Shown: piece by piece, positions 1-44,097 of the stretch
Layout: each line of letters begins with the position of its first letter
How positions within the stretch are numbered: position 1 is the stretch's first letter
From: Pseudogymnoascus verrucosus
Lineage: Eukaryota
Reading direction: 5' to 3' (one strand)
Length of the DNA: 64,000 nt
Assembly (NCBI GenBank): GCA_001662655.1
Contig: KV460206.1
Program-made: the position numbers and the translations under genes
The notes under the pieces: model-generated
Told to the model about the DNA's origin: nothing
What the model saw: the letters and a program-made list of their open reading frames with translations, nothing else
The model's database searches: none

Positions 1-2776
1 TGCGGAAGACGAGCACCTCACCCTTGGATTTCTTAGCAGTGACTATCTCGGTCATAAGCACATACAAGCCGTTGAAGAAGCTATGGCCGTTAGTGTTTGT
101 ACATATGCATAGACACGGAGCAATGAAGACGTACATAAGAAACCCAATAAGAATTCCAACGTTCCGCCATTTATGACCTCTTTGGTACTGGAAGCTGGAG
201 CCAATAAAGGATGTTCCCGACACATAGTCGCTTCCCGCAACAGAACCTACAGCTGAACATACTCGATTGGCCTGGGTGACGTTTTCATACCCAGCAACCA
301 AAGCGCTCGGGACGTATGACGTGCACAAATAATCAACGCCATGGAACTAAAGCATTGTTAGCCTTCTGTCATGAACCGTAATACTATAGAAAAGCATGAT
401 TAGCCCGTACCTCATTAATCATAAGAGCCTCGAAGCCATATGCCACAGGGTCAATGTAGTTCATCCATCTGCTCCAACCTAACATGTAGTCGATAGGAAT
501 GGCGAATCCAGCGAACATGACCAGGCCCAGAATCAATACAGCCGCCGGTACCATGGCTTGCGATAGTGTTCGAGACGATGCAGCGATAGTCCGGAAAATT
601 CCGGACATCGTAAGAACAGTCAGGTAAGAAACGAACAGAAAGAAGAAGAACGCCCCGGGTTCGCGTCGTAGGTTGGACATGAAGTCTAAGTTTGATGTTA
701 ATATCCCATTTTTAAACGCGCGAGGAAGTGAGTTTTTAGATTGACCTCAACAAAAGGGTAGAAGGGGCCTCTGGGTGCTTTCCTCGGTTGGGGCAACTTA
801 CAGAGTACAAGATTGAAGACAATGCTGTTGACAGTCTTATACGGCATGTCTATCAACATCGACGCGAATGCCTCCGCAGAGGGATGATAAAAGGCGTATC
901 GAGCATGCTTCTCGACAATAGGTCGTTGTGCGTAGAGAGTCAGGATTTCTAGAGCCGAGCTAAAGGCATTCATAAGAATAGCGAAGAAGATTAAAGCAGA
1001 ACGTTGGAAGAAACTGCCCGTAGTAAGTTGCAAGTTAAAGAAGATTGAGGTTATGATTAAGCCCATGATAATATTAGCAATGAGCTGACCGACTGTAATG
1101 GACGGGTCACCGATAAGTCGTCGATATGCACGCCAAAGGCACAGCCGCACCTGCCCAAAATAGGACAATGTGAATGGAGACTTGGCACGTTGAGACTTCG
1201 CCTGCTGAGCTCGTTTGTGAGCGCGGAAGGCTTCGGCGTCAGGGCCATTGATGGAATGAGCGATCTTGTACTCCTCAATTTCTGCCTGTACAGCGTTGTG
1301 CGCGGCGCTGTTCTTCCACGCCGTTGCAAACTCATCTGGGGTTCGAGGCACCCTGTTCTCGAAACCAGCTCTGACGCTGCGTTCCAGAGGGCTGGTCATG
1401 GATGTCAAGAAGTCCGGGGTTGTCTGGCGGGCAAGACACTCGAACCCCAAATCGATGAAATACTGCCTGGCAGAATCGGCACGGCCGAAAAAGATTTGGC
1501 GACCCTCGTAAAGAACAAGAGCTTTGTCGAAGAGGTCGTATGCACTCTGAGGAGCTTGGTAGATTGAGACGACGCAGGTGGTCTGGAAAAGATCCGCCTG
1601 AAGCTTCAGCGTCTTGCAGAATTCAATAGCATTAGCACTATCCAAACCTCGAGTAGAGTTATCCCAACATTGAAAAGGTGCACCAGAAAGGGCAGCCTCG
1701 GAAATGGTGACACGTTTTCTTTCGCCACCAGAGACACCACGAACGTACTCATTTCCTACTCTGGTATTCCGCGTGTGGCTGATACCAAACATTGCCATTA
1801 CAACATCCCTCAAGTGGTCCGAGAACATAGCGTGAGATACATTCTGTGGCAGACTCCGTGGGGCTCGGGCACGAGATGCGAAGGTAAGCGTTTCACCCAC
1901 AGTAAGCATGGGAAAGTGTACATCCACTTCAGCAGTGTAGATGGCCTCACCACGATGCGCAGTGTGGATCTCCGTGGCGGTCAAACCCTGGTAGTTGAAA
2001 TAGGCATCATCATCCACATATAGACCGTTCGTCTCGCCCGCAATCGTCTTGAGTAAAGTGCTGCAACCAGATCCCGGAGGGCCCAGAACAATAAGCATTT
2101 CGCCATTATGGACAACGCCGTCAAAGTCGCGCAAGATGTCGATGCGGCGCTTTCTGCCGTAGCCAAAGGCCCGACGCACCGCACCAGCAGCTTCTAACCA
2201 AACATTGGCAACGTCCTTCTGGTAGTCGGTTCCAGCGCCAAATCCGTACACATTTAGGTTCTGAAAACAGACGCCACTGGATCGAAATCCGGTTCCTTCG
2301 GCGGCTACCTGTTCGACAATGGATTTTGCCCAAGCGCGAGCGTTGAAGTTTGGACTATTAGGGTTCAGCGGCGAGTCGGGATTCGTGTGAGCCGTGAGCG
2401 CTCTGCCGAAAGGCTCGGCGCCAGAAACTCGGGACTGTGTGGTATATGTACGTGCGAGGGCCTGTATTTCTTCATCTTGCTTCCGCTCTTGCTTTAAATC
2501 GTTGCCGCCATCCATTCGGGCAGCATCAGCGTCCGTTGCCATCTCCTTGTCTTGAGTGACAGTATCAGTGTCACTACCACCAAACTCAGCGACTGAAATA
2601 GCACTAGATTTGATAAAGCTATTGTCGTAAGGTGTAGGTGTAGCGTCGGCGCCTAAGGGTACAATAGCCGGGTGTGAATTGTTGTCACCTACTGCATTGT
2701 GGTGAGGATTGATAACATCGGGTGTTCTGGCAGTGTGATCGTTGCTCCCGAAGAGATTGCTATCCATAAAGGCCAT
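1..2776 (-). CDS. PDR-type (ABCG) ABC multidrug transporter, 5' part; continues off the left edge
   Basis: Walker [14 protein letters not shown], signature [19 protein letters not shown] and YQAPQSAY are typical of PDR NBD1. Introns at about 801-686 and 410-347 join ORFs 698-2779 and 384-680 to a downstream exon (FHGVDYLC...KWRNVGIL). Confidence 0.95.
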
Positions 2777-2920
2777 CACGCCTAGTTGTATCTAACTTGG
2801 CTTGGCCAGGAATTGTAGTGGATTGTAATAACAGAGCAGAGAGAGTTTGCAATAGGAGTGATGGGTATATAAGAAAGGGTACAGGAAGCACCCCACAGCT
2901 GGCCACGTAAGGATGTTGGA

Positions 2921-3433
2921 CCGAAGCCCGAGTTTAGAATCAAGCAAACGGGACGCGCATCCATTACCCCTAAAATAGCCCTACATTTCCGCCGGGCCCG
3001 GCCCATATTCCGAACTAGGGAATACCTTTGGTGTTGGCGACTACATTATAGTATTATGTCTATCGAGATGTGGGCTGCTTGAACCAGGACCGGGTACTAG
3101 AGGACCCGGGATGTTCTCCAGTTCGGCATTCGGGGTACGTATTTTGGCCGCCACGACTCATAGGAAGAGACGGTTCTAGAGTGGAGTATCAACCTCGTTC
3201 CCATCATTTCCTAACTGTTGAAATGTTTTGCGGTCTCGGACGTCGGAGGTTTGAACTAGGTTGGGTTCCGGTTTATAGAACAAAGTAAATAAAGTTATCA
3301 AGTTAACGGGCGATGATTTGTTGTAATGCAATCCTAGCGATCCTAGGCACACACAAAGTGCCTAGCTTCGGTATTCGGAGACACTGTTAATCCGTGACCG
3401 AGATTATTACAGGAACAGTGCCACCGATTCCCG
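2921..3433. promoter_or_regulatory. Five CGG-N4-CGG direct-repeat motifs (candidate Zn2Cys6 binding sites) in the divergent promoter
   Basis: 2921-2930 (rc CGGGCTTCGG), 3124-3133 CGGCATTCGG, 3237-3246 CGGACGTCGG, 3369-3378 CGGTATTCGG, 3424-3433 (rc CGGGAATCGG). Confidence 0.55.
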
Positions 3434-3512
3434 AGAATCATCTAAGATTCCTCACGTTGTCTTCTCCTAGCCAAAGTTTCATCCGCGAAACTCTATTTTC
3501 CCAATCATTCCA

Positions 3513-6090
3513 ATGAGTGAGGCTCGCGCTTCGGCTTCCCCCCGGGCTTCCCCTAAGGGGGACACTGGGGAACAACCGGTTGCACAATGGGCATGCACCA
3601 TTTGTCGGGCACGAAAGGTATGTTGTGCAACATCTACGTCCTTGGCAACTGCTAAGTTCATGAGGTCAAATGTGATCGAATATTGCCAAACTGTACTGGT
3701 TGTTCAAAGAATCCCGAGGGCTGTAGGTATGAAGCATTACGGAAGAGGGCCGTACGCCGCTCGTAAGTTATCTAGCCTCGTCGGCGTCGATCTATATTAA
3801 CTTTAGCCAACTGCTAGTACTTACAAGGACATGGTGGAGCGCTTAGCAAAGATGGAGGGCGTCGTAAAGGAGTTCTCGAGAAGCAAGGTCTCAACACCGC
3901 CAAGTAACGAAGTCGAGGCGGAACCCAACTTGCATATGGCGCTAATGTCAGAGGGAACTTCGCCAAATCGTCTCTTCGAGCCAGTCTTTGAGAGTGACGA
4001 ATTCGTAGGTCCGGCTGCTGGTCAAGTGCCAGAAAACAGCCAGTCAGCCCTAACTGGATTTGAACCTCCTCTTAACCATAATGGAGCCGCCGTCGTCGAC
4101 AATGAACTAGAGATTGAGTATACAGGTATGGCAACCAGTCTAACTGCTTCCCTCAAATTAACGGTCTAGGTCCGTCTTTCATATTTTCCCTCCAAGGTAT
4201 CCTATGGGTCAATGAATTAGTTGGGGATGATTGTTTCGGTCGGGCAGTGGCCGCCTCCCTGACACCGACGTCGCTGCCACATAATCGTGGCAATGTGGGC
4301 ATTTCTGCTATCCACCCACTTCCGAGCAAATCAGTAACGATTGATTGTGCAAATGGTAACTATGTAGATCACGCTAGAGTAGCCCAGAAGCTTACAAAAG
4401 CTGTACAGAATACCTCGTGATACTGAACCAACATATATGCTTATTCGATGACCAGGAGATTATGGATGGTATCGAAAGGTATTACTCGACAGGAATATCA
4501 CCATCCCGGGGCTGGTTCACCGCAATTAATGTAATCCTGGGGCATGCTCTCCGGAAGCGTAGCGACATGGAGAACTCGGTTGAAAGTGAGAAGTATATAG
4601 GAAACGCGATGAGCATGATCCCATCTATCATGATGTCGAAACCGAACCAACTCAATACAGGCGCAATGTTATCAATGGTAACTTTTACACCGCTTAAATA
4701 ATGAAAGGGGCTACGCTAATTCATTTAGACGGCATACTTCATGCTTCTCTGTGAGAATCAGACTGCTATAATGATTCTGGCAGCTGCGATACAGTCAATG
4801 ATCTTGTGCGGTTACGACAATCCGAGAAGACGGCCTGGCCAAACCGATGAGGATAAACTTCTCGAAAGACGATTATTTTGGCAAGCCTTTGTTTTTGATC
4901 ATGACCTGGCTTTGCAGATTGGAAAACCACCGATGATTGGGCCCGACTTCATAATCGACTTGCGGGATGATCTGCCAGAGGATGGAACAGGGACGGTGTC
5001 GTTCGACAACGGCGTTACTCTTAATATCTTGCGAGAGCACGTAAGCTTAGCCCTGATAAAGAGAAAGGCTTATTCACTTCTCTACGCCAAAGATGCTGTC
5101 ACGAGGCGCGATGACGAGGTCGTAAAAATCATTTCTGACCTCGATTTCGAGCTCTACAACTGGAAACTACACATTCCGGAGATTACAAAGTCTGATAGGC
5201 CAGAGCAAGATGAGAAAGATTTCGGATTAATGTCTCTCACCATGATGCATTACAATTATTACCAGTTAATAATCGTGGTCCATTCATTTATCTTTCAATG
5301 TTCGAATTTGGTCGAGTCGGATGACAACTTTGGGAACATATTGTCAAGTGTTGCTCTTTGCGTAGGAGCCGCGAGGGCAACGGTGTCCTTACTCGATTTT
5401 CATGAAGATCGCCACCCATTCAGCATGTATGTTTGAACTTACTATTTATCGAAATTACACACTAATGTATCTTTAAGGTTTCTCTTGAATAATATATCCT
5501 GGAGTCTCGATATCATCTTTATCAACATCCTGCAGAACAAGGGAACTATTAGTGCTCGGGAGGATCTTAACCTGCTAGGGAGGATTGTTTCCCTTTTCAA
5601 AAAATACTATCCAAATTACACACACTCCATCTCTTTTCGAATTGCCAAAGTTTTCTATCAGGTTGCCTGGAAGGCTCTCCAGAATCACGCTTTCTACCAA
5701 ACCCCTCCACCAAACAACGTCCCTCCACCACCTGACGTTCCTCTATATAATGCTTGGGACAGGCATCTACAGACAAAGGTAGTCCCCGGCAATACATCTA
5801 CCTATAATGCATTAGAACCATCCACCCAGATACGATTCTACAATCAACAAACAGTCACGCAATCTACTCTTCCCTCGGATCAACAAGGAATAACATCACC
5901 GTTCAATCTTCAAACAAATGAGCAATTCCACAATCTCGGACTAGACAACAATACAAGCAATAACATAGTTTGGAGCAGTAATGATCAGAGGGGACCGAAT
6001 GCAGAATTTCGCTTATCTCTAGGTCTAGATCCACAATACTGGCAAGGCTTATGGACAACGGCAGCAGAATGGGAAGGGAATACAAATTAG
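3513..6090 (+). CDS. Zn(II)2Cys6 transcription factor with fungal-specific middle homology region (multi-exon)
   Basis: Splicing out 3618-3664 gives CTICRARKVKCDRILPNCTGCSKNPEGC (C-x2-C-x6-C-x6-C-x2-C-x6-C). A later exon carries ERRLFWQAFVFDHDLALQIGKPP, a Fungal_trans-type motif. Confidence 0.9.
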
Positions 6091-6652
6091 TTTTGTATTA
6101 TGGTTCGAACTTGGATAGATATACAGACGAGACAACTGTTTGAAGCTTTTTAGAAAGACGAGGATGAACACCCTGTAATAATCACTTGTGGATGCTCCGG
6201 CAATAGCTGTGTTAATAATGTTCGAATAATTTTTATCGGCCGTTCCTTACAAAAATGGGTTTGGGTGAGGCCGAGATGTCACCAACCGACGTAAAAAGCA
6301 TGAGATCGGTGGATAAGTATCCACTCTAGTATTTAAGTTCTGGCAACGTAAGGTAAATACTTAAACCGCAAGTTTATAGAGCATCGGATTTACCTAGCTA
6401 CTTTCGCTCTAGGGTTGGGCCCCCTACTTAGTTGTTAGACTCAAAGGGATGTCTCACGCTATCAAGGTTCTAACATCATATTTCCTGAAATTATTCTACG
6501 TTGCTACTCCTGGCTATTGCTACTCCTGGCTACTGCACTTCGCGTGCCGAAAGTGATAATTTCGCTTTAGCGTAAGAAACCCACGCAACGCGTAGATGCA
6601 ATCGCAATAGTGTAAGTGACGCTACATATACTGCTTTACAAGAGAGCCTTTC

Positions 6653-6713
6653 ACATACGACCATAGACTCAAGATAATTGGACATCCCGTCCGCTGTGCC
6701 ATACACAAGCTTG
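6653..6713 (+). rRNA. 5S rRNA gene, 5' half (nt 1-61), interrupted by an insertion
   Basis: ACATACGACCATAGACTCAAG...CATCCCGTCCGCT...CAAGCTTG matches the ascomycete 5S 5' end. A TATA-like TACATATA lies about 30 nt upstream. Confidence 0.92.
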
Positions 6714-7094
6714 TAATCCAGTGGATTAATACTCTCAATCGTGCCAATAGGCATAGCCTGGAATCTGAGCCCCTTGCCGCCTCAAGGGTGATCTTGGGGT
6801 GAAGAGCGGGTGAGCAGGGTGAGCAGGGCGAGAAGATGCAACGTTTTTCGTGTCAATTTCGTGGCAATGTCGTGCCGCTCCATTAACAAGGGACGACCTG
6901 TTGCCTCACCTCAATTGTCTGCTGGAGGCGTATACCCGTCAGCATCCGGCCCAAGTGGACGAGCACCATTGCTTTGGCTGGCTGCCTTGTCCGGATGAGC
7001 AAGCGAGGGAAGTCTCGTCGAAGGTACCGTTAATATATCTTTCTTCTCACTCCAATCTATACACAACCCTCTCTCGTACACCCAACAAGCTAGT

Positions 7095-8921
7095 TTAGTG
7101 AAGCGCAAACTTCGACCTAGCCCTCAGCTTTGCGCCGAAGATCCAGAGCAAAAACATACCCACAATCCCAATCACACTCAGCCCACCTAAAACGCTCGTC
7201 CCCCTACCGATTCCGAGGTTCTTGTACAACGGATGCGCGTATAAGATTGACGCACACGCGGACGCGCTGCGCAGGAAGTCATTAGCAGCGAAAAGGCTAG
7301 CTGCGTACTGGGGGTACGATATCGGGACATAGGTGAAGATGCACTGCATAACGACGAAGACGGTAGCGGCGTAGATAACGATGCCTATGGTTGGGACAAC
7401 CCAACTTATGCTTGGCCGCGCGGTCCACTAAACGAATTAGCTTGTGATTCGGTTGCTGACATGAGGAGGACACACTGCAAACATGAATAGACCCACAGTG
7501 GGGCCGAAGCACGCGAAAAGAGCCGGCACGAGACGGTGCTCCTGCGCCCGGAGACCGTTCTTCAGGATATCAGGGATCATATAAAAGTGTAGGTAGGCTG
7601 AGTAAACCAAGACACCAATGAGACACGCAATAAGGATACATGTAAATAAGACGCCGATGGTGCCAATGGTAAAACCGTAGAAAACCGGATAAACTAAGGG
7701 GAAAACTTCAAAAAAGCTGTAGTAAATCCCATAAATGATAGCAGTATAAACGTTTACAAACAGAATAGCCGGGTCCTTGATGGTAATCTCCATTGGTTTA
7801 ATTAAGGCGTCCACGGCGACCTCGCGAGTGCTAAGTTTAGCCTGATCAATCTCGCTTTGTGACATAAGCCGAGACTCGCTAGTGAGTTTGCGCAGGCGCT
7901 TAGCTCTACGCAGGAGGATGTTTGGCGTGCTTGTCTCGGGAAGCACAGTGAACATGAGAATCACTACTGGGCAGGCGGCCCACAATATTATCCATAATGA
8001 CCACCTCCAGCCCTTAGCTTCTACGGCGAAGCCGCTTAAAAGAGGGCCTAACGCGGGCCCGCAATATGCTGCACTAACCCACGCAATGAGCGCATAAGGT
8101 AGGTATAACATAGATACCATATCGCTCATTGTTGCGGCTCCCGTCGCTAAGCATGGGGAGCCGAAGAAACCCTGTAGGAACCGAAGGACGAGGAGACCGG
8201 CAAAGTTGTTAACAAGCGCCGTAGGAAGCGAAATGATAGTGAAAAGTATCATGCTGATAATATACACTGGTGACCGACCGATTCTCGGGATTTCGCTAAG
8301 GGGCGAGAAGATGAGAGGTCCTATGCCATAAGCAAGGACATATAGTGCTAAAGGCAGCGAGGCCTCAACAGCCGTAATATGGAACTTTTCAATGACCTGT
8401 GGGATACTCGAAGTGTAGATGGCAGACCCAGAGTACACAACAAAAGTGTAAAGACATATGAGGAAGCCAACCCATGACTTCTTGCCTACGGACCAGTTCT
8501 GTGGGTTCGCAGGATCGTCTGTAGAATACCAGTCAACAAGTACTATTCCGTCAGCCGTCTTAGCTGGGTATATAGGCTTGCTAGTGGTGCGCTCGACAGC
8601 GTCCTGGATCTCAGTCTCTAGGCGTTCCTGGGTCAACTGTTGGGTAGTATGGCGGGAGAGGCTGCTTTGGTGTTCAATGTCCTGATTGTACAGTTCGGGG
8701 TCTGGAGTTGCGTATGGCTCATCGCTCTGCAAGACGATCTCCTCGTTCGGTTGCTCTTGACTGAGGGGACGCTCGATTGGCTTCTTCTCCGGCTTGAGGA
8801 GGGCTTTGTAAGCTTCTGGGATCTCATAGCCAGGGAGCTCTTCGGGGTATGGGAAGAGTCGGTTTTTAGTGACATATCTTAGGAGCTGACCTAAAGGGGC
8901 CTCTCGTATCAGGTCCGACAT
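7095..8921 (-). CDS. MFS drug:H+ antiporter, DHA1 family (Mdr1/Flu1/Caf5-like)
   Basis: N-terminus MSDLIREAPLGQ; motifs WYSTDDPANPQNW, SPLSEIPRIGR, LRFLQGFFGSP, LPETS. One intron near 7428-7476, and the last exon ends LRARSKFALH*. Confidence 0.93.
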
Positions 8922-9521
8922 GACAAGCATCTGATTAATGTGTATACTAGAAGTAATAAATTCCTTCAGGTGGGGATGTAGCAAGTGCCACCGATAGGAA
9001 GGTCAGTGAAAGAGACCACGAGAGGGAATTACAGCGATCTTGGAATGGAAAAGAAAATACCCACGAGACAGTCAAGAGTCTAATATATATACATCTCTCT
9101 CACGTAAACACTTACAAATGTAGGCCTCTCAGTAAATCCCAGCCTTACACGGAGTTGGTGGAGATGATGCGCGTTTCGGTCCAAGTGAGTACCACGTCTT
9201 TCGGTTAACTAACGCACTTATCCAGAAACAGATGATGCCATGCCGGCGGGACAGTGGGTTGATATCTCCTAGATCGTGAATCTATTGGATACTTTAGGAT
9301 GACGACGGAAGGGATTAGTGATCGGAAATAGATTCGGGTTGTGGATATGATGTTAAGAATGGGTTAATCTGCTCTTTCGAGAGCCATGGTCCACTAAACC
9401 AACATCAACAACCACAGTAGCGTGCCGTTGGTTATAGGAGGCGACTGTAATATGGCTAGGGATTGCAGCTGACGAACGGAATGCGCGCATCCATGTATCA
9501 CATATTGTACTGTGCCAACAG

Positions 9522-9921
9522 GCATCAGGAAGCACCAAGAAGTCCAACCAAACGAATTCTTGGTACGGGGAAACAGCGAAATTCTACGACGGTCAGTTAT
9601 TAAGCACTAGATCAGCAAAATTTGACGGCAATGGTACAAAGAGTACTTTCAGTATGGCGCATACTTCGCTTGCAATGGAGGTATCGATACACGGCTAGCA
9701 CATAGGCTGGTAGCTGATGGATGTCGTCATTTTAAAGAGGCGCCTGGATCACCATTAATAATGAAGCAAAGCAGTACGACGATACAACTACAACGTGATT
9801 TTTATGCTACCCTTACAAATGGTCTGGAAGCTTTTCTAGAACTACATTATGAAGCTCACGTGATTTGGAGTGGCGAAGATGGCTACGAAGTGACGCTCTG
9901 CCCCCGTCTTACCTATCTCTA
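9522..9921 (+). pseudogene. Degraded coding remnant of unknown protein inside the 5S-inserted element
   Basis: About 130 codons in one frame (EVQPNEFLVRG...KH*ISKI*RQWYKEYFQYG...VTLCPRLTYL*) broken by only two stops (TAG, TGA). No family recognised. Confidence 0.35.
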
Positions 9922-10122
9922 GTAAAGGCGCTTTGCTGCTCTTTCCATACTTTCACTTGCTTCCTTTGTGAGACCAGACAAGCTTCCGTTTCGGATTTGG
10001 AGATAATGTGGAGTTCGTTCTCACTCTCGGCTCGCGATGACGGTCGTGAGGGCATCAAAATCTTAAGGCAGCAACGCTCACCTGCTAGTCCAAATGGCAC
10101 TGTCTTGAGTATTAATCCACTT

Positions 10123-10188
10123 CAAGCTTGAGATCGGTGGATTAGTAGTTGGGTGGGTGACCACCAGCGAATACCCACTGTTGTATGT
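10123..10188 (+). rRNA. 5S rRNA gene, 3' half (including the duplicated 8 bp)
   Basis: CAAGCTTGAGATCGGTGGATTAGTAGTTGGGTGGGTGACCACCAGCGAATACCCACTGTTGTATGT. The end GTTGTATGT pairs with ACATACGAC of the 5' half, and CTTGAG pairs with CTCAAG. Confidence 0.93.
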
Positions 10189-10196
10189 TTTTTTTT
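10188..10196 (+). terminator. RNA polymerase III oligo-T terminator of the 5S gene
   Basis: Run of nine T starting at the last 5S nucleotide. Confidence 0.8.
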
Positions 10197-10802
10197 GGCC
10201 TTTTTTAAGTGGTCGGGGAGTGTGGCTGTAGAGAAATGGTACTGCAGGTGTAAGGGGGCTGGGCGCCGCGGCCACGAGAGGAAAGGGATTTGGCTACGAT
10301 GGCTGGTAGTGTGGAGTGTGGTGGTGATGACTGGTTCCTCCTTATGCTTATGCATGAAGCCCGTTGCGTGGGTGTGATGACAGTGAGTTGTAGGGGTTGA
10401 TATGTATGTAGGCTGCTCTCTCATTTTTATAAATCCCATACCGCCGCTTTTTTCCATCCTATACGTTAGAGTTCGTGGAATCAGCGGGTGCAGTTCAAGG
10501 CTTAGGTCTTTCTCTGGTGAAGGTGAGCAGGGGTAAGCTAGTAAACGAGCAGGGTGAGGCAAACCATCCAGGAGTCCTTAGTGCTCCATAACCAAAGTTC
10601 GGGTACCAATGCATCCTCCTGGGTGTCGTGCGTGTCGTGCGTAGCCTTGTACTACAGAGGAGGAATGAGGGGTTGAGATATATAATACGTAGATGGAACT
10701 CTCTCCTCAATTGGTTCCCTCTTTATTAGAAATACCTAAACGTTTTCGTTAAAAACTGCTGGCCGTATTTTAACTCTCTGTAATTCATTACAACAGGCAA
10801 CC

Positions 10803-11100
10803 TTGGAAGTTGCTGGGTTAGTTGTTGGCATAATAAGCCTTTACTCGGCTTGCTATAATCTCTACTCCGAAACCAAGGACTCGACAACGAATGTTACCCT
10901 GGCAACACACCAGCTAGATATTCACAGGTCAATTTTTAAGGCGTGGGCGTTCTACTGGGAAAGTAAGCTACTTGATCCAAACCACCTAACGGCGGACGAG
11001 AGCGGGGAGGATCAGGAGTTGGCCAATATTAAACTGAGGCGGTACTTGGCGAGGAACACATATAAAGCCAAAGGCATCGCCAGTGCGCTGTATTGTATTG
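10803..11100 (+). pseudogene. Truncated HeLo-like (prion-inhibition type) N-terminal domain fragment
   Basis: LEVAGLVVGIISLYSACYNLY...LDIHRSIFKAW resembles HeLo/HeLo-like N-terminal helices. There is no ATG, and the frame runs into retroelement-like sequence. Confidence 0.45.
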
Positions 11101-11234
11101 GTGGCGTCATGCTTCTAGCTCTGGCCCTTGGCGGAGCTGTGGGTTAATTAGAGCTTCAGGCTCAAGCTCACTCTCAAAAATCGGTGCCATAGTTGGGTCT
11201 TCCTGCTCAACTCCAATTGAGAGATCCTTCTGGG

Positions 11235-11456
11235 TGTAAAGCGTAGTACCTAGGGCCTCACGGGAGTCCAGGGAACCAGGTCAGAAGGCAGGAAGTGAGA
11301 TCGTATTGCAAGACAGTAGGTCTACGTATGTACAGCGACTATCGGCTGGAGGCCTCCTTCTGAGGCTTCCAGCTCCTTATATCCTACGTTCCTTCATACT
11401 CCACTGCCGGGCAGCCCCTGAGTTCAGGACGGCCCCACGTGATGGGCCGCCTTACA
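11235..11456 (-). mobile_element. LTR remnant (~222 bp)
   Basis: Termini TGTAA...TTACA and an internal TATA-like GATATAAGG on the minus strand. The 5-bp flanks do not match, so this is not a clean solo LTR. Confidence 0.55.
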
Positions 11457-11897
11457 ATTACACTACAGCACCCGTAGTTCTGAGAATCGTATTGTCGCCC
11501 TTTCCATCCATGTCGCCCTCCCCCTTCCCTCATTACTTTGCACTCAGCCCAAAGATAGCCACTGTTAGACGTTTTCTATGGTTCTAGCAAACTACTTGAT
11601 AAAAACCAATTCTTAATATATTGAACAAACGAATTTTACAATCCTAGGGCTAGTAAATTAAAGGGACATATTTAACCTGACTCCATATGTCCTTTATCTT
11701 TCCCGTATGTTCTATTACAAATTTAGGGTGTACAAGGGGTGGTGTTTGGGTTGATAAACTCAGCAGCTCTCAGCGCTGCTTTATGCCACCCTACCACCAT
11801 CCCCGATATATAGACGTGGGCAACAGATCTTAGACCAAAAAATACCCAGCGAGTAATGGATTTACTATTATTTGATGGCAAGAATTAGGCAGAAAAC

Positions 11898-13625
11898 CTA
11901 TGAGTCTGTCGTGCCATTCCCAGCCACAAACCGCCACTTAACCCCCTCCCAACCAGGTCGCCGCCTGATATTTGCTAACAAGTTCTGCTGCACAGCTGGC
12001 AACGGCTTCCCTACTGCCTCTACCAAGCTATTATAAATCGGTGGCAAGCTAACTTGGGCACCCTCGGGGGTCACAATTTCAAAACCTAGTACAAGCGCTG
12101 CCACGGTACCTAAGATCTCTGCGTATGCGAAGTGGCGCCCCGGACAAAGATGTTTACCACCGCCAAAGGGGTTAAACGCCCTGTTCTGTAGCCGCTCTTT
12201 CTCTCTGGTCGTTATGAAACGCCTTGGGTTGAAGTTAAGAACGTCTTCTCCCCATGTTGCCGGTGCGTAAGCTGTTATCATAGAAGGCATTTGAATGTGT
12301 GTACCCTTTTTGAGGAGATACGTTGTTGGCGTGCCGGCCGCGTCCCCAACAGATGAGTGGCTCAGATAAGTGTCTTCTATAACCGTGCGCGTGCCCAATT
12401 GCCTATTTGTCATGCGCATAACCTCTTGGTAAGTTGAAACGAGAAGAGGGCATTCTGCTGAAAACTTTGCAACAGAGAATACACACTCTCGCTGGCCATT
12501 AGAATCCTCCCTTTCTTCTAAACATCCAAGAAGTTCATTTTGAAGGTCTGCAACTAGCTGGTTGTCATGGAACACATAGAATATCATCCAGAAGAGCGTT
12601 GGAATAGCATTCGTAACGCTCACAAAGAGCATTCCAAGTTCGTGGTCGGCAATATCGTCAATAGGTAGGCCCCATTTCCTGTTGATTGCCACACGACCTT
12701 TAATCACTAGACTGACATCAGAGTCTTGATCATGGCCCGCACGAAAGTATGCTCGTAGAGCTTTCTGAATTGCAGCTCGCCCTCTGAAGGGTTTTGGGGC
12801 TGTCAGAGAAGGAAATGGTTTCATTAACAGGTCAGCTTGGCCACCTTCATAGTCCCTAGTTCGTGTGTTAAAAAAAGACATGCATTAAAGGTTAGTGCGT
12901 GTAATACTTACCAAAGGCTGTCATTTAATTGAGGGTCGTCTATGAGAGGATTCTGGGCACCGAAAAGAGCACCTGTTGTAGCAAGAGTGAAAGATTTCCG
13001 TAGCCATAAATAAAACTGCTTAGTCTCAAATTCAGGGCCAATGGAATTAATAATATCAGCAACGCTATTCAAAACGCGTGCATTCATATCATTGAGCGCA
13101 GCACCAGGTGCGAGCATGTCGTAAGGCTTGTGTTGTGCATTGAGCCAACTCTCAGAGTTGGCCGGCGGGTGATGCATCAAATCCATGATATTTGGGCCAA
13201 ATCCTACCATCCGCTCGGCAAATGCAACAGTAAGGGGTTCGAAACTGAGCGACTTCTTCCTCATCGCAGCTTGAACGAGTGCTGGAGAGGTGATGATGTA
13301 CATCTTTCCCAATCCGAGAGGAAGTGTGAAGATAGGTAGGTCTGGGTTCTGCTGTCTGTGTGAGTGTTAATAAAGAAATAGTAGCCTGAATGTAGCACAG
13401 AACATACCCCAATTGATGGTAGAACTTTTGTTTATAACATATCATGTTAATCAAATGTCCAATTATCGGTATTCTAGGACTGACGATAGGCGGCTCTTGT
13501 GCGTCATGCCTAACAAGGAGCATTGGCAAGGAGAGGAGCGCCACAACGATAACACCGACACATAGAACCAATGGGTGCTCATAGCAGCGTAGCAATAAGC
13601 TATCAATGAAACCGACAAGTGCCAT
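11898..13625 (-). CDS. Cytochrome P450 (CYP7/CYP8-like fungal group), 3 exons
   Basis: N-terminal membrane anchor plus PP..PRIP, NAIPTLFW I-helix, EVMR (ExxR), FNPRRF, and heme motif FGGGKHLCPG. Confidence 0.92.
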
Positions 13626-24854: not shown

Positions 24855-25270
24855 TCATTTTGCCTCAAACTCTAATATTCGTTCACGGCTTATCGTACCT
24901 TCCTTCTCCCAAGAGTTCTCAGCCGCTAGACGACCCTTCCACTCAACAAAATACTCAATCCTTCCTTTCCGTTCTCGTTTTTTGAGTAACTGCACGCCCA
25001 AGTTCCCTTGATAGCTCGCCTCAAAGTCATTAATGAGATCTGAACTGATGTCGTCCCGTTTCTGCCACGTATTATCCCCATCCTGGAAGCCTGCCCACTT
25101 CACAAGGTACCAAACCACATTACGTAGTGTCCACTTAGCAAGCAGCGCTTCAACCTGGCAGATCCCTTTAGTGGCGTCGATCGCCACCAGATCGCTTTCC
25201 ACTCCTTGGCTGCTATAACGCGGCTGCACTGCTGTGTGTTCTTTGTTCCCAGTTGATAGTATGTTTCCGT
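24855..25270 (-). CDS. Tandem chromodomain-containing ORF (probably fragmentary)
   Basis: Two chromo motifs, YLVKWAGFQDGDNTW and YFVEWKGRLAAENSWE. Confidence 0.7.
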
Positions 25271-25271
25271 G

Positions 25272-25513
25272 AGCTTCTGCAATAACCCAGCAACCCACGT
25301 CGCAACAGAAGCGCCTTGAGGAGTTCCTAGATCGGGTAGATAGCCTTTACAAGGGTAATCATTATTAGTGCCTAAAGGTGAGGTCATACTATAATCAATG
25401 TTGCTTATGAACTTATTATACTTGCTACGAAGTGGTAGTGGATTTAATAACTCCATATGGCCCGAAGTTATGGTGGCTACTACAACCAAGGGGAAAAGGG
25501 TGGAGAACTTCAT
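25272..25513 (-). pseudogene. 5' fragment of a secreted AA11-type lytic polysaccharide monooxygenase
   Basis: Signal peptide followed by His1: HMELLNPLPLRSKYN...DYSMTSPL...YPCKGY...ATWVAG. Similarity stops before the second His (HxGGSCQ). Confidence 0.65.
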
Positions 25514-25929: not shown

Positions 25930-28900
25930 TTAAACGCCTGGCTCTACATTCTCCATCTGCCACTCATTCAAAGTTTCAAGGGAAGTCTCTGTGTTAGGAT
26001 GATGACGGCCAAGGACCCGTTCTTCCAGCTGAAAGCATATCTCCATCAGTGAAATAGCCTCATTATTTCGGCTTTGGGACTTTAGCGTAAACGCAAGGTT
26101 AGACATGGCTATTAGCGTGTCAGGGTGTTCATGCCCAAGCACTCGTTGTCTCGTCTCCATTACTCGCACCTCCATATCTTCGGCCTCCTTCCACTGCATT
26201 TGACTGTACAAAGTAGAGGCTAGGTTGGCCATACTAGTAAGTGTGTCCTTGTGCTCTACCCCAAGCACCTTCTTCCTCTCTTCTAAAGTTCGTTGGTGCA
26301 TGGCCTTAGCCTCGTCGTACTTGCCCTGGCTATTGAGCACTGAAGCGAGGTTGTTCATGCTCATAAGTGTAGAAGGGTGCTTCTGACCGAGCACTTCTGT
26401 ACTAAGCTGGAGCTCCTCTCGGTGCATGGCCTCACCCTCGTTGTACTTGCCCTGGCTATGGAGCGCTGTAGCAAGGTTTTTCATGCTCTTGAGCGTGGAG
26501 GGGTGCTTCTGGCCGAGCACTTCTGTACTGAGCTGGAACCCCTCTCGTAACATGGCCTCAGCCTTATTGTACTTGCCCTGGCTATAGAGCACTGAAGCGA
26601 GGTTGTTCATGGTCATGAGCGTAGAGGGGTGCTTCTGGCCGAGCACTTTTGTCCTGAGCTGGAGCCCCTCTCGGTGCATGGCCTCAGCCTCGTCGTACTT
26701 GCCCTGGCTATCGAGTACTAAGGCAAGCATCCCGATACTTTCAAAGATTCTCGTGTTATCATCCTGTAGAAGATGTTGACGAGTAGTAAGAGATTCCTGG
26801 CTTTCTGCCTTCGCAATTTCATAACGACCCTGAAGCCAGTTGTACCAAGCCATATTATACAAGAGGGATGCACGCTCAAGCATAGATTGGTTTGACTCTA
26901 GCTCATACTTGAGCACTTTAATAGCATGTGGTGACAAAGCTTCACACGTCTTCCAGTTTCCATAGTCTCCACCTGGAAAAGCTTTTGCCACCACTTCGAT
27001 TGCCTCTCTCCGCCATCTTTCGCTGTCCCCAGATCGCTCTAGCCACTGCCGTGTTGCGAGTTGCACAAGCCTGTGCATCTCAAAGGCCTTACCTCCATTC
27101 TTAATAGTGATCAAAGAAAACTCATCTAAAGGGGCTAGAGCGTCTTCGAAATCGAGGGGAGTGTGGTATTGGGCGCAAAGGAGGAATTCGGGAATCCCTT
27201 GGCGATCGAGCATAGCCATGAGGGACAAAAGCTCTGCAGCTTGTGGCTTGCTCCGCTTAATCTGGTCGAAGGAGATTTGCCAGGTCCGGATCACAGAATT
27301 ATGAACGCCAGGAGCCCGTCTTAGATCCCCAGATTCTTCGTCAAGTAGCCTGGTTTGACTTTGTTCGTTTTGACGATAGAGCATCAAGTACTTAGACACA
27401 CTCATCCGAATGGCTTTCGCGCTAATATATGAAGCGGCTTGAGTAATTGCTAGTGGTAGATAGTCCAGCTCTTTAACAAGCTCGGCACGATCAGAGCTAG
27501 TAGATATACCTTCAGGGATATTAATGCGAAGTAACTGGTCGGCTTCCTCCAGCTCCATCAAATTGACCAAAATGACGCTCGTGTATCCAGTACTGAGCCA
27601 AGATGCTGCTCTTCGGTCTCGTGTGGTAAGGAGTACTGATCCAGTTATAGTCAGTGGGATGTAACTCGATAACGGAAAGGCAGTGTCATTCCATTTTTGA
27701 GATCCCTCCCCTTGCGTCTGTTGAAACATGTCGATATCGTCAGCATTATCGAGAATGATAAGCCAGCGGCCATTATCGATGTTGCTCAACCATCTTAAGA
27801 CTAGGCCCAACACGTCCGTCTTTGGGTCATCTGCACCTGGTAGTTCAAGTTCAGTAGCGATGGATCTGTAAGCTTGTTCGAATCGCTCGGCGGTACTTGC
27901 ATACACCCAGAAGACCCATACTTGAGGGTCCCTCACTCTCAGCCGATACGAGAATTCAATTGCAATTTGTGATTTGCTATGTTCTTGTTAGGTACTAGGA
28001 TATGGAGGGTGGAACCGAGTCATACCCTACCCCACCTAAACCCACAAGGACTGTCCGATTATGGGAGTTAGATTGACAGAACCGCAATTCTAGAGCTGCA
28101 AGAGCATCTTGTCTCCCAACGAACTTTGTATCCCTATCGAATGGAACGGTTGATCGTGGGGGTTTCTTTCTCGACGCAGGCGCTAAATGCCATTCGAGTG
28201 AGTTAGCATTGACTTCAAGATTGACAGAAACGAGAAGGGGTATAGTATCATATTATTGGAACGTCTAGAAAAGGCCTCAGTTCTCTATCAAAAATCACAA
28301 ATACGAGATCAGTTAAGAACAATCTAGAGCTACGTACAAAATCGGTCCAGAACAATTTTCCTAGCATCTTGTTCAAATTCCTTCAAATAACCAACCGCAG
28401 CCTTGTATGCTTCGGCATTGCGATTGTCGAACTTGACAATTTGAGAATGGTCTGCATCAACTGGAATCTTTATCTCGGTGCTGTCGGGAAGTTCGAGAAG
28501 AGCCGAGCTAGACTCGACAGCGGTCATATATTCTCCTGTTCGGCCCCATTTGTTTGTCTTGGGGTTCTAGGAGACAATGTCAGCTATTTTAATCCTTCCT
28601 TGATCGAGCTATCAAAAACATCTCACCAGCTGCAGTCGTCTTGTCTGTTGCCCCTCGTAAAAGCTGACAATCTTCCGATCACGGATCAGATTCTTAAAGT
28701 CCGTGAGCTGATATAATAACAGATTAGACTTTAGTTTAATCTGCTCAAGCAACTCTATCCTCGGGTGCTGATCCTTTCCTGCTACCATACGTTGGATATC
28801 GTCGATAACGAGTCCTTTGTGTAGGGCACCGAAGAATAATATGCCGTATGTTGCTTTATACAAAGCGGCAATTGTTGCATTGTCGCGTTCATCTGTCTGC

Positions 28901-40443: not shown

Positions 40444-41683
40444 TTTGACTGTGTTGTGTATTATGTCGAGTGGTATGGTATATTATCTTCCCTTTCTTTG
40501 ATTATCGCAACACTACGGTTTCCGATTTTTACCCCTCACTCAGTATGGCGGGTGGCGGCGTTTATATGTTGATCTCTCAAAACAGAACCCGTGCGGTGCG
40601 GTGCTTGGTAGCTTGGTAGCTTGGTAGGTAACACAAAAAAAAAAGGTTAACGCGCGCGGCTATCCAAAACAACGAGCTGTCGTATTATCCAGGGTGTTGA
40701 TACGAGTCACAGAACGTTGCGATACTCAGTAAATGATTTGATGTAAAGGAATCACAGTGCGACAGAGATTTTCTGGCTACTTGGCGCATTCTATAGTAGT
40801 AATACTCGCCTTCTACAGTCTAAAGCTACTTATTTCCCATCAGTGCTTTCCCTGTTTTTTTTTGCCCGTTCTCGACCGCGACGATCGGCTTGGTAGCGTA
40901 GGGGTAGAGTCGCTGACGTCACTTCTGTGGACGCGACTGGCAGCTTTGCTTGGAGCTTTATCCGAACGCGTCGGGTCTAGGCTGGACTAGGGTATGTCCG
41001 GCCGCTTTTAGTGCAGGGCATCCAGGGCTGGCCGGAGCTAACGGGTGCCGGTTTCCACGGCTCGATGGGAAGCCGTGTTGGTGTTGGATACCATACGGAG
41101 CCGTGTTGGAAGTATTCACAATGACAATGATACCAAGAGGTAGCAAGAGCACGATAGAATAGACCTGTAAAATAAGAACTCTATTCACTATAAAATAAAA
41201 GATACTCTGCGCAAACTAGGCGTGACGGCGAGATGCGAACGTGACTTTCTAGTGACAGGGGTTCAGAGTACGACGTACGCAAAAATATAGGAGAAATCGA
41301 TACTCGCACAGCTTTTGAAATGCCAATACTTAAAGTTGCCATCATTTTTCTCTCTGCAGTCAGCTTCTCGTTGCCAGGGGACAGACGTTGTATATATAGA
41401 TAGAGATGCAGCCACTCGGATACTATGGCGCCCACACCTATAGCTAAACGCTATGCAGTGCTTCGTGGCCTATGTTGGACCTTAAGCGCCAGCCTTGTTA
41501 TACAGACAAGATATATTCGTGCCTCAATCTCTCCGTCCGTATTTTGAAATAGTCCTGTTGCTTGTTTGTGGTTATACCTAGATATAATTACTCTCAAATT
41601 GCAGAATTCGCCTTTCCCCTTGACGCTGACGAGGGGCCTGAATTGTTATAATCATTGAAGTCAACTGAACTGCAAGCTATATA

Positions 41684-44097
41684 ATGGCTTCAACACCAAG
41701 AATTCCCACACAGCCCTCCGTCGAGCCGTCTCAATACCAGCATTTCATCCCTCGGTTTATTCTGAAAAACTTTTCCTATAAGTCACGAAAGAATGGCGGG
41801 AACAAACGGGGCAACCGCAACGGCAAGAACCAACGCGCCGAAGATATGCTCCATACAATCGAACTTTCGGGCCCAAAGGCAAAGATCCTCGACACAACTG
41901 TCGCCCGCACACTTGGGAAGGTCGACATGTACCGAGATTTTGCAAAAACCGAGAATCAGCAAGGACTTGAAAAACAGTTGGCAGACCTCGAGTCTCTTGC
42001 AGGTAGGGTTGTCGCCGCCATCCGAAAGAGGCTTGAGGCTAGGAATGAAGATGTCTGGATAACCCGTTTGGAGCGTGATACGTTGCGCAAATTTCTATTT
42101 ATTATGAAATACAGGTCCTCGAACATGCACAAGCGTTTTTGTCCTGAGACTTTCGAGGACTATTCTTCCGATGATAGAGAGGAGCTGCTAGAATATGTAC
42201 GCGGGAAAGATTTCGAGAAGCCAATTGATGTGTGGTTCGACAACATCAAAGCTATGCTAGAGCTGGAAATGGATCCAGGTGGTGAGTGGATGGAAAAAAT
42301 TAGGAAGCGCGCATATCCTCCTGACGCGGAATGGTTTGTTCATCATACACAAAGTATGTATATGGCCTTATGCACGCCATCAGAGCCCGAAGATGAGTTC
42401 TTATTGACCGAGAATGGCTATGGAATTCACGAAGGACCAGTGAGTGGCCGAGTCGACCCTAGCACCGGTCAATTTACTGCGACATCCTACACCGAGTACC
42501 ACGTCTTTGCAGTCATCTCCCCAAGGCTATTGATTGTGTTACGAAGCCTTATCTTGCCTAATCCTATGGAAGATAGCTTGCAAGGTATAAGGGAGTTCAG
42601 ACAGACCATGTATCGGATTTGTGCTAGCACACATACCAATCCGAACGAAGCAAACTCGATATTAGCGGATCTACCGATATCAAAGGCTCGCAATTCGTAC
42701 ACGAAGTTAATGGGTGACAGTCTAGTGTTGCTCAATGGCGAGGATGGGACGTATCGAGCTGATCACCGATTCTGTTTTCAATTCTTTCCAATTGCCAATT
42801 GCCATGTTAACAAGATCAATGGTATTATGCTCGAGGAGTCCCACAGTATATCTACGATAGTCTTCGGGTCTCGCACCGGAGCTCGGAAAATATTCGAATC
42901 CTATCTGAGCGCTCCTGTGGAATCTGGGTTTAAGACTGTGGGCGGTAAGCCAGACGACAGCAGGTTGATTTTTCTCCGAAAACTAGAGCATGTCGCTAAG
43001 CAGATGGGATCTAATGTTGTGGCCGTATATCGCACAGCCATCTATCGCACAAGAAATAAGACGCCTACTACTGACGAGAGTGACGAAGCATTCGCTCGGA
43101 TGATGGAACTTACCCCACCAGAGGAAAGGGGTGAGCATATGCAACTCTATATGCGACTTGGTAAACAGTCTCGATGATAAATTTGAATGCCTTCACTAAC
43201 TACTGCAGGTGGGTCCTATGCGACATTGATGAAGGACATGGAGCAGGCCCGAAACATGATGAATATGAGAATTAAATTCGACGTTTGGTCTACGGGACTA
43301 AATGAACATATCCGGAATAATATCCGCGAGAATCTCCGACACATATTTAGCCAGCTCCCTGCGCGGCGAGTCTGGTATTATCTCAAGCATATACGGAATA
43401 TCACACTACGAGATCGTTCTATAGAGGGGAGTGTAATTTGTGAGGGGCCGGACGACGTGATCGCAAAAGGTGATACATTCCTGTGTGAGATATTTGCAGG
43501 TTGCAGATAAACTAACATATATCACCATAGTGAGCCATGTGATCCGCGGCGAGGCCATAGCTCGTCTTATGTTCGCTGTTGTGCTTAATCAAATATCCCT
43601 CGCGAGTCACCCAGACTTTGAATTCTACCCCACGATCATCTCCGAAGCCTCGTGGCGTAACATTTCTAGAAGTAAACAGATTATTTTCAGTTCTGCAGGA
43701 AGTATATGTGATTGCGGTAAGTTGTATATCCATATTCAGGTTCGCAATCTAAGACGATAGTATAGGTATCAACGAGATAGAACAGAAAGCTCGATTGTTA
43801 CGAGACAAGCTACAGAATCCGAGTTACCCCAAGACATTCGCAAACCTCTTCCTACCGAAAAATGCTATGATTAGACACCCCTTGTGGTCCGACAAAGAAA
43901 ATATCGAGATGCAGACACGCTTTCATACTCGAATCGTATTCCCAGGCCTCGTAGAAAAGCTGGGTCAGGAGGAGGAGGACGAGTTGGACGAGGTGCTCTT
44001 CAATATTGCATATCCTTCTCCGTCACCATTCCTCGTCTTTAACAACGAAAAGAAGGCGATACAGGCATATCAATGGATTAACTCTATGGTGCGGTAG
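41684..44097 (+). CDS. DUF4238-family protein (multi-exon)
   Basis: N-terminal QHFIPRFILKNF, LRKFLFIMKYR, EFLLTEN, and consecutive ORFs separated by short GT-AG introns. Confidence 0.8.

Follow-up and report, generated by a model that had tools for sequence, protein, structure and literature searches.

Introduction

Starships, giant elements led by a DUF3435 tyrosine recombinase (the captain), are reported to owe their direct repeats to matching DNA of their termini and of the target, and to excise without leaving a footprint (PMC10104507). As curated in PMC11162782, 23% of 222 Starship insertion sites lie in 5S ribosomal DNA (rDNA), at no fewer than five distinct positions and with direct repeats of 6–16 bp, and Enterprise itself targets a palindrome. 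For the Osiris Starships of Aspergillus fumigatus, the direct repeats ttaagccac, aagcc and aagccacacg are given (main-text table and Table S3 of PMC12153272). Even when a mini-element's own captain is frameshifted, a captain has been described to work on it in trans (PMC10104507). Captain-less, derelict Starships are described as large regions known by their typical cargo (PMC9156397; 10.1101/2025.11.13.688278), and the smallest annotated Starship element given in PMC11162782 measures 15,020 bp, the program starfish starting from recombinase genes and dropping elements below 15 kb. For Pseudogymnoascus, Table S8 of PMC11162782 lists 5–22 Starship recombinase genes and 0 or 1 delimited element in each of the eight genomes shown. 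Here we analysed a 64,000-nucleotide stretch of Pseudogymnoascus verrucosus DNA (assembly GCA_001662655.1, contig KV460206.1; hereafter designated the window), in which a 5S ribosomal RNA (rRNA) gene is split by a 3.4-kb insert with one intact gene, a DHA1-type transporter of the major facilitator superfamily (MFS). We estimate a probability of about one half that this cassette is a captain-less derivative of a 5S-site-specific tyrosine-recombinase element, the link to Starships being drawn by analogy from the target site and the anatomy, and not from a recombinase.

One 5S rRNA gene in two halves

The right-hand half of the split gene (Table 1) was recognised by the Rfam model RF00001 as a 5'-truncated match to model positions 54–120 with 31.2 bits (E = 5e-05), which, as can be expected of a half gene, falls short of the gathering score of 38 bits; no RNA family reached its gathering score anywhere in the window. 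The left-hand half (6653–6713) alone gave no Rfam match, as is to be expected when almost every helix is deprived of its pairing partner. A metagenome scan queried with 23 nt from the right-hand half yielded five contigs of related fungi; four of them (L002–L005) contain complete 5S genes (71.5–74.6 bits), the gene of the fifth being cut by the contig end. The left half was colinear with nt 1–61 of the intact genes and identical to that of L002 at 58 of 61 positions, differing at nt 23, 30 and 44, and the right half was identical to L002 at 65 of 67 positions (nt 54–120). The two differences in the latter (nt 86 and 93) replace a C–G pair by a G–C pair, and the window agrees with the Rfam consensus there. 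The only columns common to both halves are nt 54–61, CAAGCTTG. Moreover, in the Rfam structure line of the intact relatives, nt 1–9 pair with the 3' end and UCAAG (nt 17–21) pairs with CUUGA, these being the real helices I and II of 5S rRNA, each of which joins one half to the other. Collectively, a single 5S gene is split by an insert of 3,409 bp, with 8 bp of the gene present on both sides, and the disrupted gene is dead.

Ends of the insert and their likeness to the target

The insertion point coincides with the AAGC motif at Rfam model positions 55–58, the only AAGC in the Rfam 5S consensus. The direct repeat is exactly 8 bp long, the neighbouring bases being different on the two sides. 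The arms of the inverted repeat, 38 nt each, are complementary at 29 positions (76%) and constitute the best inverted repeat within 6400–10500; out of 2000 shuffles of the terminal 60-nt segments, not one attained their exact core of 15 nt, the maximum being 10. The arms begin 6 nt from the direct repeat on the left and 1 nt from it on the right, and the outermost bases at one end of the insert do not mirror those at the other. A preliminary description of this locus had reported two halves of one 5S gene with pairing across them, the 8-mer at both junctions and an inverted repeat of just these dimensions (29/38, 15-nt core, offsets of 6 and 1 nt), all of which our alignments reproduced.

The left end also resembles the target beyond the 8-mer. 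Thus, in a BLAST comparison of 6651–6731 with intact 5S genes, the alignment continued for 18 nt past the junction into the insert. GTGGATTAATA of the left end follows the repeat in the same register, within one base, as GTGGATTAGTA does in the 5S gene, a match that was reached by 9 of 20,000 shuffles; when the register was left free, the match was weak (159 of 5000 shuffles). The motif of the left end is present in inverted form in the right arm. Within the window there were no other copies of the element ends, the one match with three mismatches, at 27631, being within chance. The left junction (21 nt) had no match among metagenome contigs, and 24 nt of the left end had none in the prokaryote genome collection; the 15-nt core was found at 51 loci of viral contigs in matches extending to at most 23 nt, which is chance level.

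The combination of an exact 8-bp flanking repeat with inverted repeats, in the absence of a transposase, is typical of non-autonomous DNA transposons, and a non-autonomous DDE element (hAT-like or Dada-like, of Pack type) that captured a host gene and was inserted by 8-bp staggered cuts is a possible, if somewhat doubtful, explanation of the cassette. The inverted repeats would then be the sites to which the transposase binds. It would agree with the multi-copy state of the ends described below, as in families of miniature elements, and DDE transposons that target small RNA genes, including 5S, do exist, namely, Dada-5S of fish (PMC8869645). However, the inverted repeat lies 6 and 1 nt away from the direct repeat and the terminal bases are unmirrored, an arrangement awkward for a DDE transposase. 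Moreover, the left end repeats the target beyond the 8-mer in register, which a staggered-cut duplication does not predict. Both features argue for site-specific recombination over staggered-cut transposition. Strict reuse of one 5S position would also be unusual for hAT, and CAAGCTTG departs from the hAT target consensus (T at position 2, A at position 7). As to Dada, its duplications are given as 6–7 bp and its hosts as fish and a protist (PMC8869645), whereas the repeat here is 8 bp.

An old insertion shared by related genomes

Parts of the region 5700–11200 of the window were contained in 20 public runs, five of which covered at least half of its words. Logan contigs of four public runs (X3, X4, X6 and X18), which bear other organism labels and come from four studies, were compared with the window over 4500–12500. 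Each of the four runs contained the insert and both of its flanks, at single-copy depth and with 98–99.7% likeness. One contig of X4 (record 19) spans 6753–10135 with 32 differences; in X3, record 8 spans 4500–6709 and record 9 spans 6691–10135, thereby crossing both junctions. The right junction was crossed (to 10135) by contigs of all four runs and the left one was seen in one run. Since the insert has diverged to the same degree as its flanks and is found once in each genome, a single old insertion inherited by all these genomes, and not a recent hop, is the most parsimonious reading.

A misassembly across 5S repeats, or a chimera joined at a HindIII site, could be suspected from the AAGCTT present in both junctions and from the tendency of 5S repeats to break assemblies. 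It is scarcely credible, since X3 record 9 by itself crosses both junctions and contigs of X4, X6 and X18 cross the right one; in addition, three further AAGCTT sites lie inside the insert, and terminal inverted repeats would not be expected of a random fragment. With junction-crossing contigs in runs of four other labels from four studies, this explanation was rejected.

Related ends beside other 5S genes

Contigs of all four runs also contain, at high summed depth, a joint from 6705 to 10123 that skips 3417 bases, with 8 letters fitting both sides; these are intact 5S copies elsewhere in the genomes, that is, the undisrupted target. Position 6758, just beyond the left arm, was covered by 22–37 contigs per run, nearly all of which have G where the window has C, the difference lying at least 30 letters from the contig end. 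The summed contig depth there was 2200–4600, as compared with about 20–40 in single-copy parts. The ends are multi-copy, and the depth hints at roughly a hundred copies, summed depth being no copy number. Indeed, three other single-copy contigs of X4 (records 16–18) can be aligned with about 87% likeness from the beginning of the 5S gene, across the junction, up to 6777, 6780 and 6823, respectively, the alignment from 6651 being unbroken at 6713/6714; beyond these points they diverge. X3 record 10 contains a related right end joined to the right half of 5S (10067–10191, 17 differences), followed by 8.9 kb of other sequence, and in X6 the consensus of seven contigs just before 10126 agrees in register with the right end of the window at 17 of 30 positions (hand count). 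These contigs indicate that further 5S genes are interrupted at this same position by elements whose ends are related. The earlier expectation that related ends would be found elsewhere was thus confirmed, end-like sequences standing beside 5S halves in many other contigs of the four runs.

Further joints were seen from 6713 to 10127, from 6714 to 10126, and from 6757 to 10125 and 10155; they might be footprints or short family members, and we draw no reading from them. The segment 11117–11400 is a repeat (summed contig depth of 280–800 against 20–40 nearby, with many loose ends), and in two runs a contig links the left-end block (to 6777) directly to 11263, so that this repeat adjoins left ends at other loci. 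A 24-nt fragment at 6296–6319, which precedes the split gene by 350 bp, has 92% identity to 5S nt 55–78. In three runs, contigs join about 10082–10088 of a related element to 6274–6275, which suggests that 6275–6319 is a relic of another element-to-5S right junction.

Possible origin by site-specific recombination

If the cassette is a captain-less derivative of a 5S-targeting tyrosine-recombinase element, a non-autonomous unit of 3,409 bp would have entered the 5S gene at nt 54–61 by site-specific recombination, performed in trans by a tyrosine recombinase of the Starship captain type. The 8-mer would then be the crossover sequence common to the element ends and the target, rather than a staggered-cut duplication. 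GTGGATTA is the likely recombinase-binding motif, because it directly follows the 8-mer in the 5S gene, the left end has it in that register too, and the right end has it in inverted orientation. In a circle formed by joining the ends, the palindromic 8-mer would be flanked by inverted copies of this motif, which in the 5S gene also lies on one side of the 8-mer; with the motif in the left end and its inverse in the right arm, the circle would have the layout of a recombinase core site. The cassette would presumably be one of a multi-copy family, the ends of which are found next to 5S halves in other places, and this copy may have gained a complete duplicate of a resident DHA1 MFS gene together with about 1.2 kb upstream and 0.4 kb downstream of it. 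The Starship recombinase genes tabulated for Pseudogymnoascus are candidate helpers for such a captain-less cassette.

The insertion site appears, by analogy, to be the same as that of the 5S-targeting Osiris Starships, because all Osiris direct repeats given with sequence contain AAGCC and the 8-mer aligns at the AAGC of positions 55–58. The preliminary description had called the cassette Starship-like; the insertion in 5S, the direct and inverted repeats and the target motif stand on that side, whereas the cassette is without a captain and the type of recombinase is one that we infer. Its further picture of a single-gene resistance shuttle found no support, since the cassette is single-copy and 98–99% alike in all four runs, with the same right junction in all of them and the left one seen in one, and no empty-site contig was seen among contigs that break in the repeated 5S.

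Several observations weigh against a tyrosine-recombinase origin. No DUF3435 recombinase or transposase was found among the 65 frames of at least 130 aa in the window, and no recombinase gene or remnant within the insert (Pfam, E ≤ 10). The MFS cassette is single-copy; in X3, X4, X6 and X18, where contigs break in the repeated 5S, no contig joins the flanks without the insert, and nothing indicates that this copy still moves. A left-end-like block is situated, in both X6 and X18, 37 nt downstream of a 5S 3' end and not at the 8-mer, so that the family is not strictly tied to one site. Dozens of contigs contain members of the family, which in this respect is closer to miniature elements of DDE type than to giant Starships, and 8 bp is also the length of hAT duplications. 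The position of the Osiris repeat within the Aspergillus 5S gene is presumably that given above, as judged from the AAGC motif and the Aspergillus 5S sequence. Finally, a likeness of the inverted repeat to that of Osiris, 10 of 13 positions by eye, was discarded, as local alignment placed it at chance (reached by 991–2546 of 5000 shuffles).

The MFS gene and its origin

The gene in the insert has a 48-nt GT..AG intron, an intact frame and a single terminal stop, and its product matches Pfam MFS_1 with E = 3.3e-32 (112 bits, the cut-off being 33.4). The protein is 100% identical, across 98% of the query, to an NCBI protein assigned to Pseudogymnoascus sp. VKM F-103. JGI gives relatives the name "DHA1 family multidrug resistance protein-like", and some NCBI and UniRef entries have the name "Caffeine resistance protein"; a drug-efflux role of the cargo is thus putative and a matter of annotation only. 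The model of 592 aa ending at 7095 fits the length of relatives of 588–592 aa (P0004–P0011). The deposited NCBI model (P0001, 619 aa) differs by an additional intron and by its C-terminus, which extends to 6914 (window 6914–7161). In the remainder of the insert (0.38 kb on the left, 1.2 kb on the right), none of 18 stop-to-stop frames of at least 35 aa, 13 of which fall in 8922–10083, had a Pfam match at E ≤ 10. The Pfam scans of the insert and of the window frames thus agree with the earlier statement that the single intact gene is a DHA1-type MFS gene and that no transposase or recombinase is recognised. Upstream of the MFS gene, near 9507, about 50 extra letters are present in X3, X6 and X18 as compared with the window and X4, which constitutes an indel polymorphism.

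In a maximum-likelihood tree of the cargo protein and its 30 best protein matches, the 12 closest proteins form two sister groups, one of four with the window's protein (Shimodaira–Hasegawa-like approximate likelihood ratio test, SH-aLRT, 99) and one of eight others (SH-aLRT 97). The latter (P0005–P0012) come from named Pseudogymnoascus genomes and are 79–84% identical to the window's protein, and one named strain is represented in both groups. For the MFS copies P0002–P0004, the identity is 86–88%. The more distant matches, at 62–69%, belong to other Leotiomycetes and to lichen fungi. Judging from this tree, the cargo gene is a paralogue, duplicated inside the genus or shortly before its emergence. 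A comparison of the MFS phylogeny with the species tree had been proposed earlier; the protein tree gave a genus-level paralogue, a distant origin finding no support, and distant horizontal transfer was rejected on the tree. Among the coding-sequence differences listed, 14 in number, 8 are synonymous and 6 are not (two of the six lying in one codon), and this subset hints at constraint on the coding sequence.

The same duplicate could be accommodated by an explanation that involves no transposition, namely, a duplicated MFS segment trapped between two partial 5S copies by ectopic recombination or repair among 5S-associated repeats, at a locus with much 5S debris. A within-genus duplicate is what such an event would involve; the additional 24-nt 5S fragment at 6296–6319 (like nt 55–78) and the left-end-like blocks that occur in other arrangements near 5S genes would be in keeping with it. 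It is nevertheless improbable, for chance breakage does not predict two halves that sum to exactly one 5S gene with an 8-bp overlap, nor inverted repeats with a 15-nt core right at the junctions, nor the recurrence of the junction at other loci.

Table 1 Features of the split 5S rRNA gene and of the insert (positions in the window)
Feature	Position	Strand	Basis
5S 5' half (nt 1–61), ending in left direct repeat	6653..6713	+	alignment to intact L002, L003, L005
Left direct repeat CAAGCTTG (5S nt 54–61), perfect palindrome	6706..6713	.	
Insert, 3,409 bp, 49% G+C	6714..10122	.	between the two repeat copies
Left terminus mimicking 5S nt 62–79, with the near-palindrome TAATCCA-G-TGGATTA within	6714..6731	+	
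Left arm of inverted repeat	6720..6757	+	
DHA1-type MFS gene, 592 aa	7095..8921 (exon 1, 8921..7476; intron, 7475..7428; exon 2, 7427..7095)	-	
Presumed promoter region, no recognisable coding sequence	8922..10083 (1.16 kb upstream of MFS start)	.	inferred
Right arm of inverted repeat	10084..10121	-	
Right direct repeat CAAGCTTG	10123..10130	.	
5S 3' half (nt 54–120), then T run	10123..10189	+	Rfam RF00001 model 54–120

Neighbouring genes and sequences

On the left of the split gene, the window contains a gene for a PDR-type ABC transporter (ABC_trans_N, ABC_tran and ABC2_membrane; 698–2791, minus strand) and one for a fungal-specific transcription factor of the Zn-cluster kind (4729–6090, plus strand), and on its right a frame at 10803–11147 and a cytochrome P450 gene (11898–12884, minus strand). 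The position of the MFS cargo among other genes of efflux or detoxification type may be a coincidence. A perfect 16-nt tandem duplication (TTGCTACTCCTGGCTA, twice) is present at 6501–6532, upstream of the 5S gene; the flank contigs of X4 and X6 end there, which suggests length variation at this place. Farther away are a chromodomain frame (24855–25346), an NB-ARC and TPR (NLR-like) gene at 25930–27987, of an NLR kind that is often Starship cargo, with no captain among the tested frames, and a DUF4238 gene (41669–43177).

Implications

The interest of the locus derives from the family behind the cassette and not from the transporter; the practical weight of this copy is low, as it is an old fixed insertion whose cargo has an efflux role by annotation only. 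As the preliminary description foresaw, captain-based searches would miss the cassette, starfish beginning, as described in PMC11162782, with recombinase genes and discarding what is shorter than 15 kb. Presumably, small non-autonomous Starship derivatives are uncatalogued because Starships are found by their captain and predictions below 15 kb are discarded. We tentatively suggest, as a generalisation that may well prove too wide, that Pseudogymnoascus, and perhaps filamentous ascomycetes at large, harbour abundant small captain-less elements that recombine in a site-specific manner into 5S nt 54–61 by means of Starship-type recombinases from other loci and may take up whole host genes, and that the "half 5S" pseudogenes long known from fungi are their junctions. 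Aspergillus nidulans has 5S pseudogenes in which a conserved block comes after the 5' half of 5S.

If this suggestion is true, there would be a miniature, non-autonomous tier of Starships that is invisible to captain-based searches. A natural element of 3.4 kb with both ends, a known landing site and a complete gene would show that the ends alone persist as a unit and that whole genes are captured at small scale. The cassette would also offer compact ends and an 8-bp palindromic target for the study of DNA recognition by captains. Truncated 5S pseudogenes are a large burden in fungi, some of which may be accounted for by the family, provided that it is as frequent as the contig numbers suggest. 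Such truncated sequences make up 18–83% of 5S sequences in filamentous ascomycetes (Rooney and Ward 2005, as cited in PMC5555474), and in the account of PMC5555474 they were described as pseudogenes and not as junctions of mobile elements.

Comparison with known systems

Among DDE systems, Dada-5S of fish likewise lands in small RNA genes, with duplications that are reported to be 6–7 bp long (PMC8869645). With their 8-bp duplications, host genes and lack of a transposase, non-autonomous hAT and Pack-type elements resemble the cassette, whereas the ends of the cassette are not flush with the repeat. Moreover, Pack-type elements are stated to carry mostly gene fragments (PMC11162782), in contrast to the whole, intact gene found here.

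With Starships the cassette has in common short direct repeats that match the target and terminal inverted repeats, the latter being frequent but not universal in Starships; it is without a DUF3435 captain as the first 5' gene and without the large size and many cargo genes. It resembles a non-autonomous Starship but lacks the captain and the size, so that we do not file it as a member. In the searched portions of the supplementary tables of three Starship papers, where an absence is weak evidence, no direct repeat matched the 8-mer or the 15-nt core of the cassette, and the 8-mer occurred only within inverted-repeat strings of unrelated elements. The literature searched on non-autonomous and captain-less Starships contained no natural small derivative, only a laboratory mini-element and large derelict regions. 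Derelict or degraded Starships have lost the captain and kept cargo, as here (PMC9156397). They are recognised by large size and by genes for DUF3723 proteins, ferric reductases, NLRs and patatin-like proteins, their ends being usually lost (PMC9156397), whereas the cassette keeps both ends and has none of the typical cargo.

As to the target, the 5S site of Voyager is a different one, situated 20 bp from the 5' end (PMC9156397). Osiris, a member of the Enterprise family in A. fumigatus, is likewise inserted inside the 5S coding sequence, apparently at AAGC, with a direct repeat of 5–10 bp that matches the target, inverted repeats near its ends and a fragmented 5S gene (PMC12153272; PMC11162782). 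However, Osiris elements are 37–138 kb long and contain a DUF3435 captain and many cargo genes, as opposed to 3.4 kb, one gene and no captain, and the host of the cassette is a Leotiomycete and not an Aspergillus. As for size and gene content, the laboratory mini-Hephaestus is man-made, has flanks of 3.8 kb and 1.9 kb and targets TTAC(N7)A instead of 5S (PMC10104507); like the cassette, it consists of both flanks and a single gene, in its case a resistance gene, and, as described in PMC10104507, this cut-down Starship excises and reinserts with a captain, also when the captain is supplied in trans.

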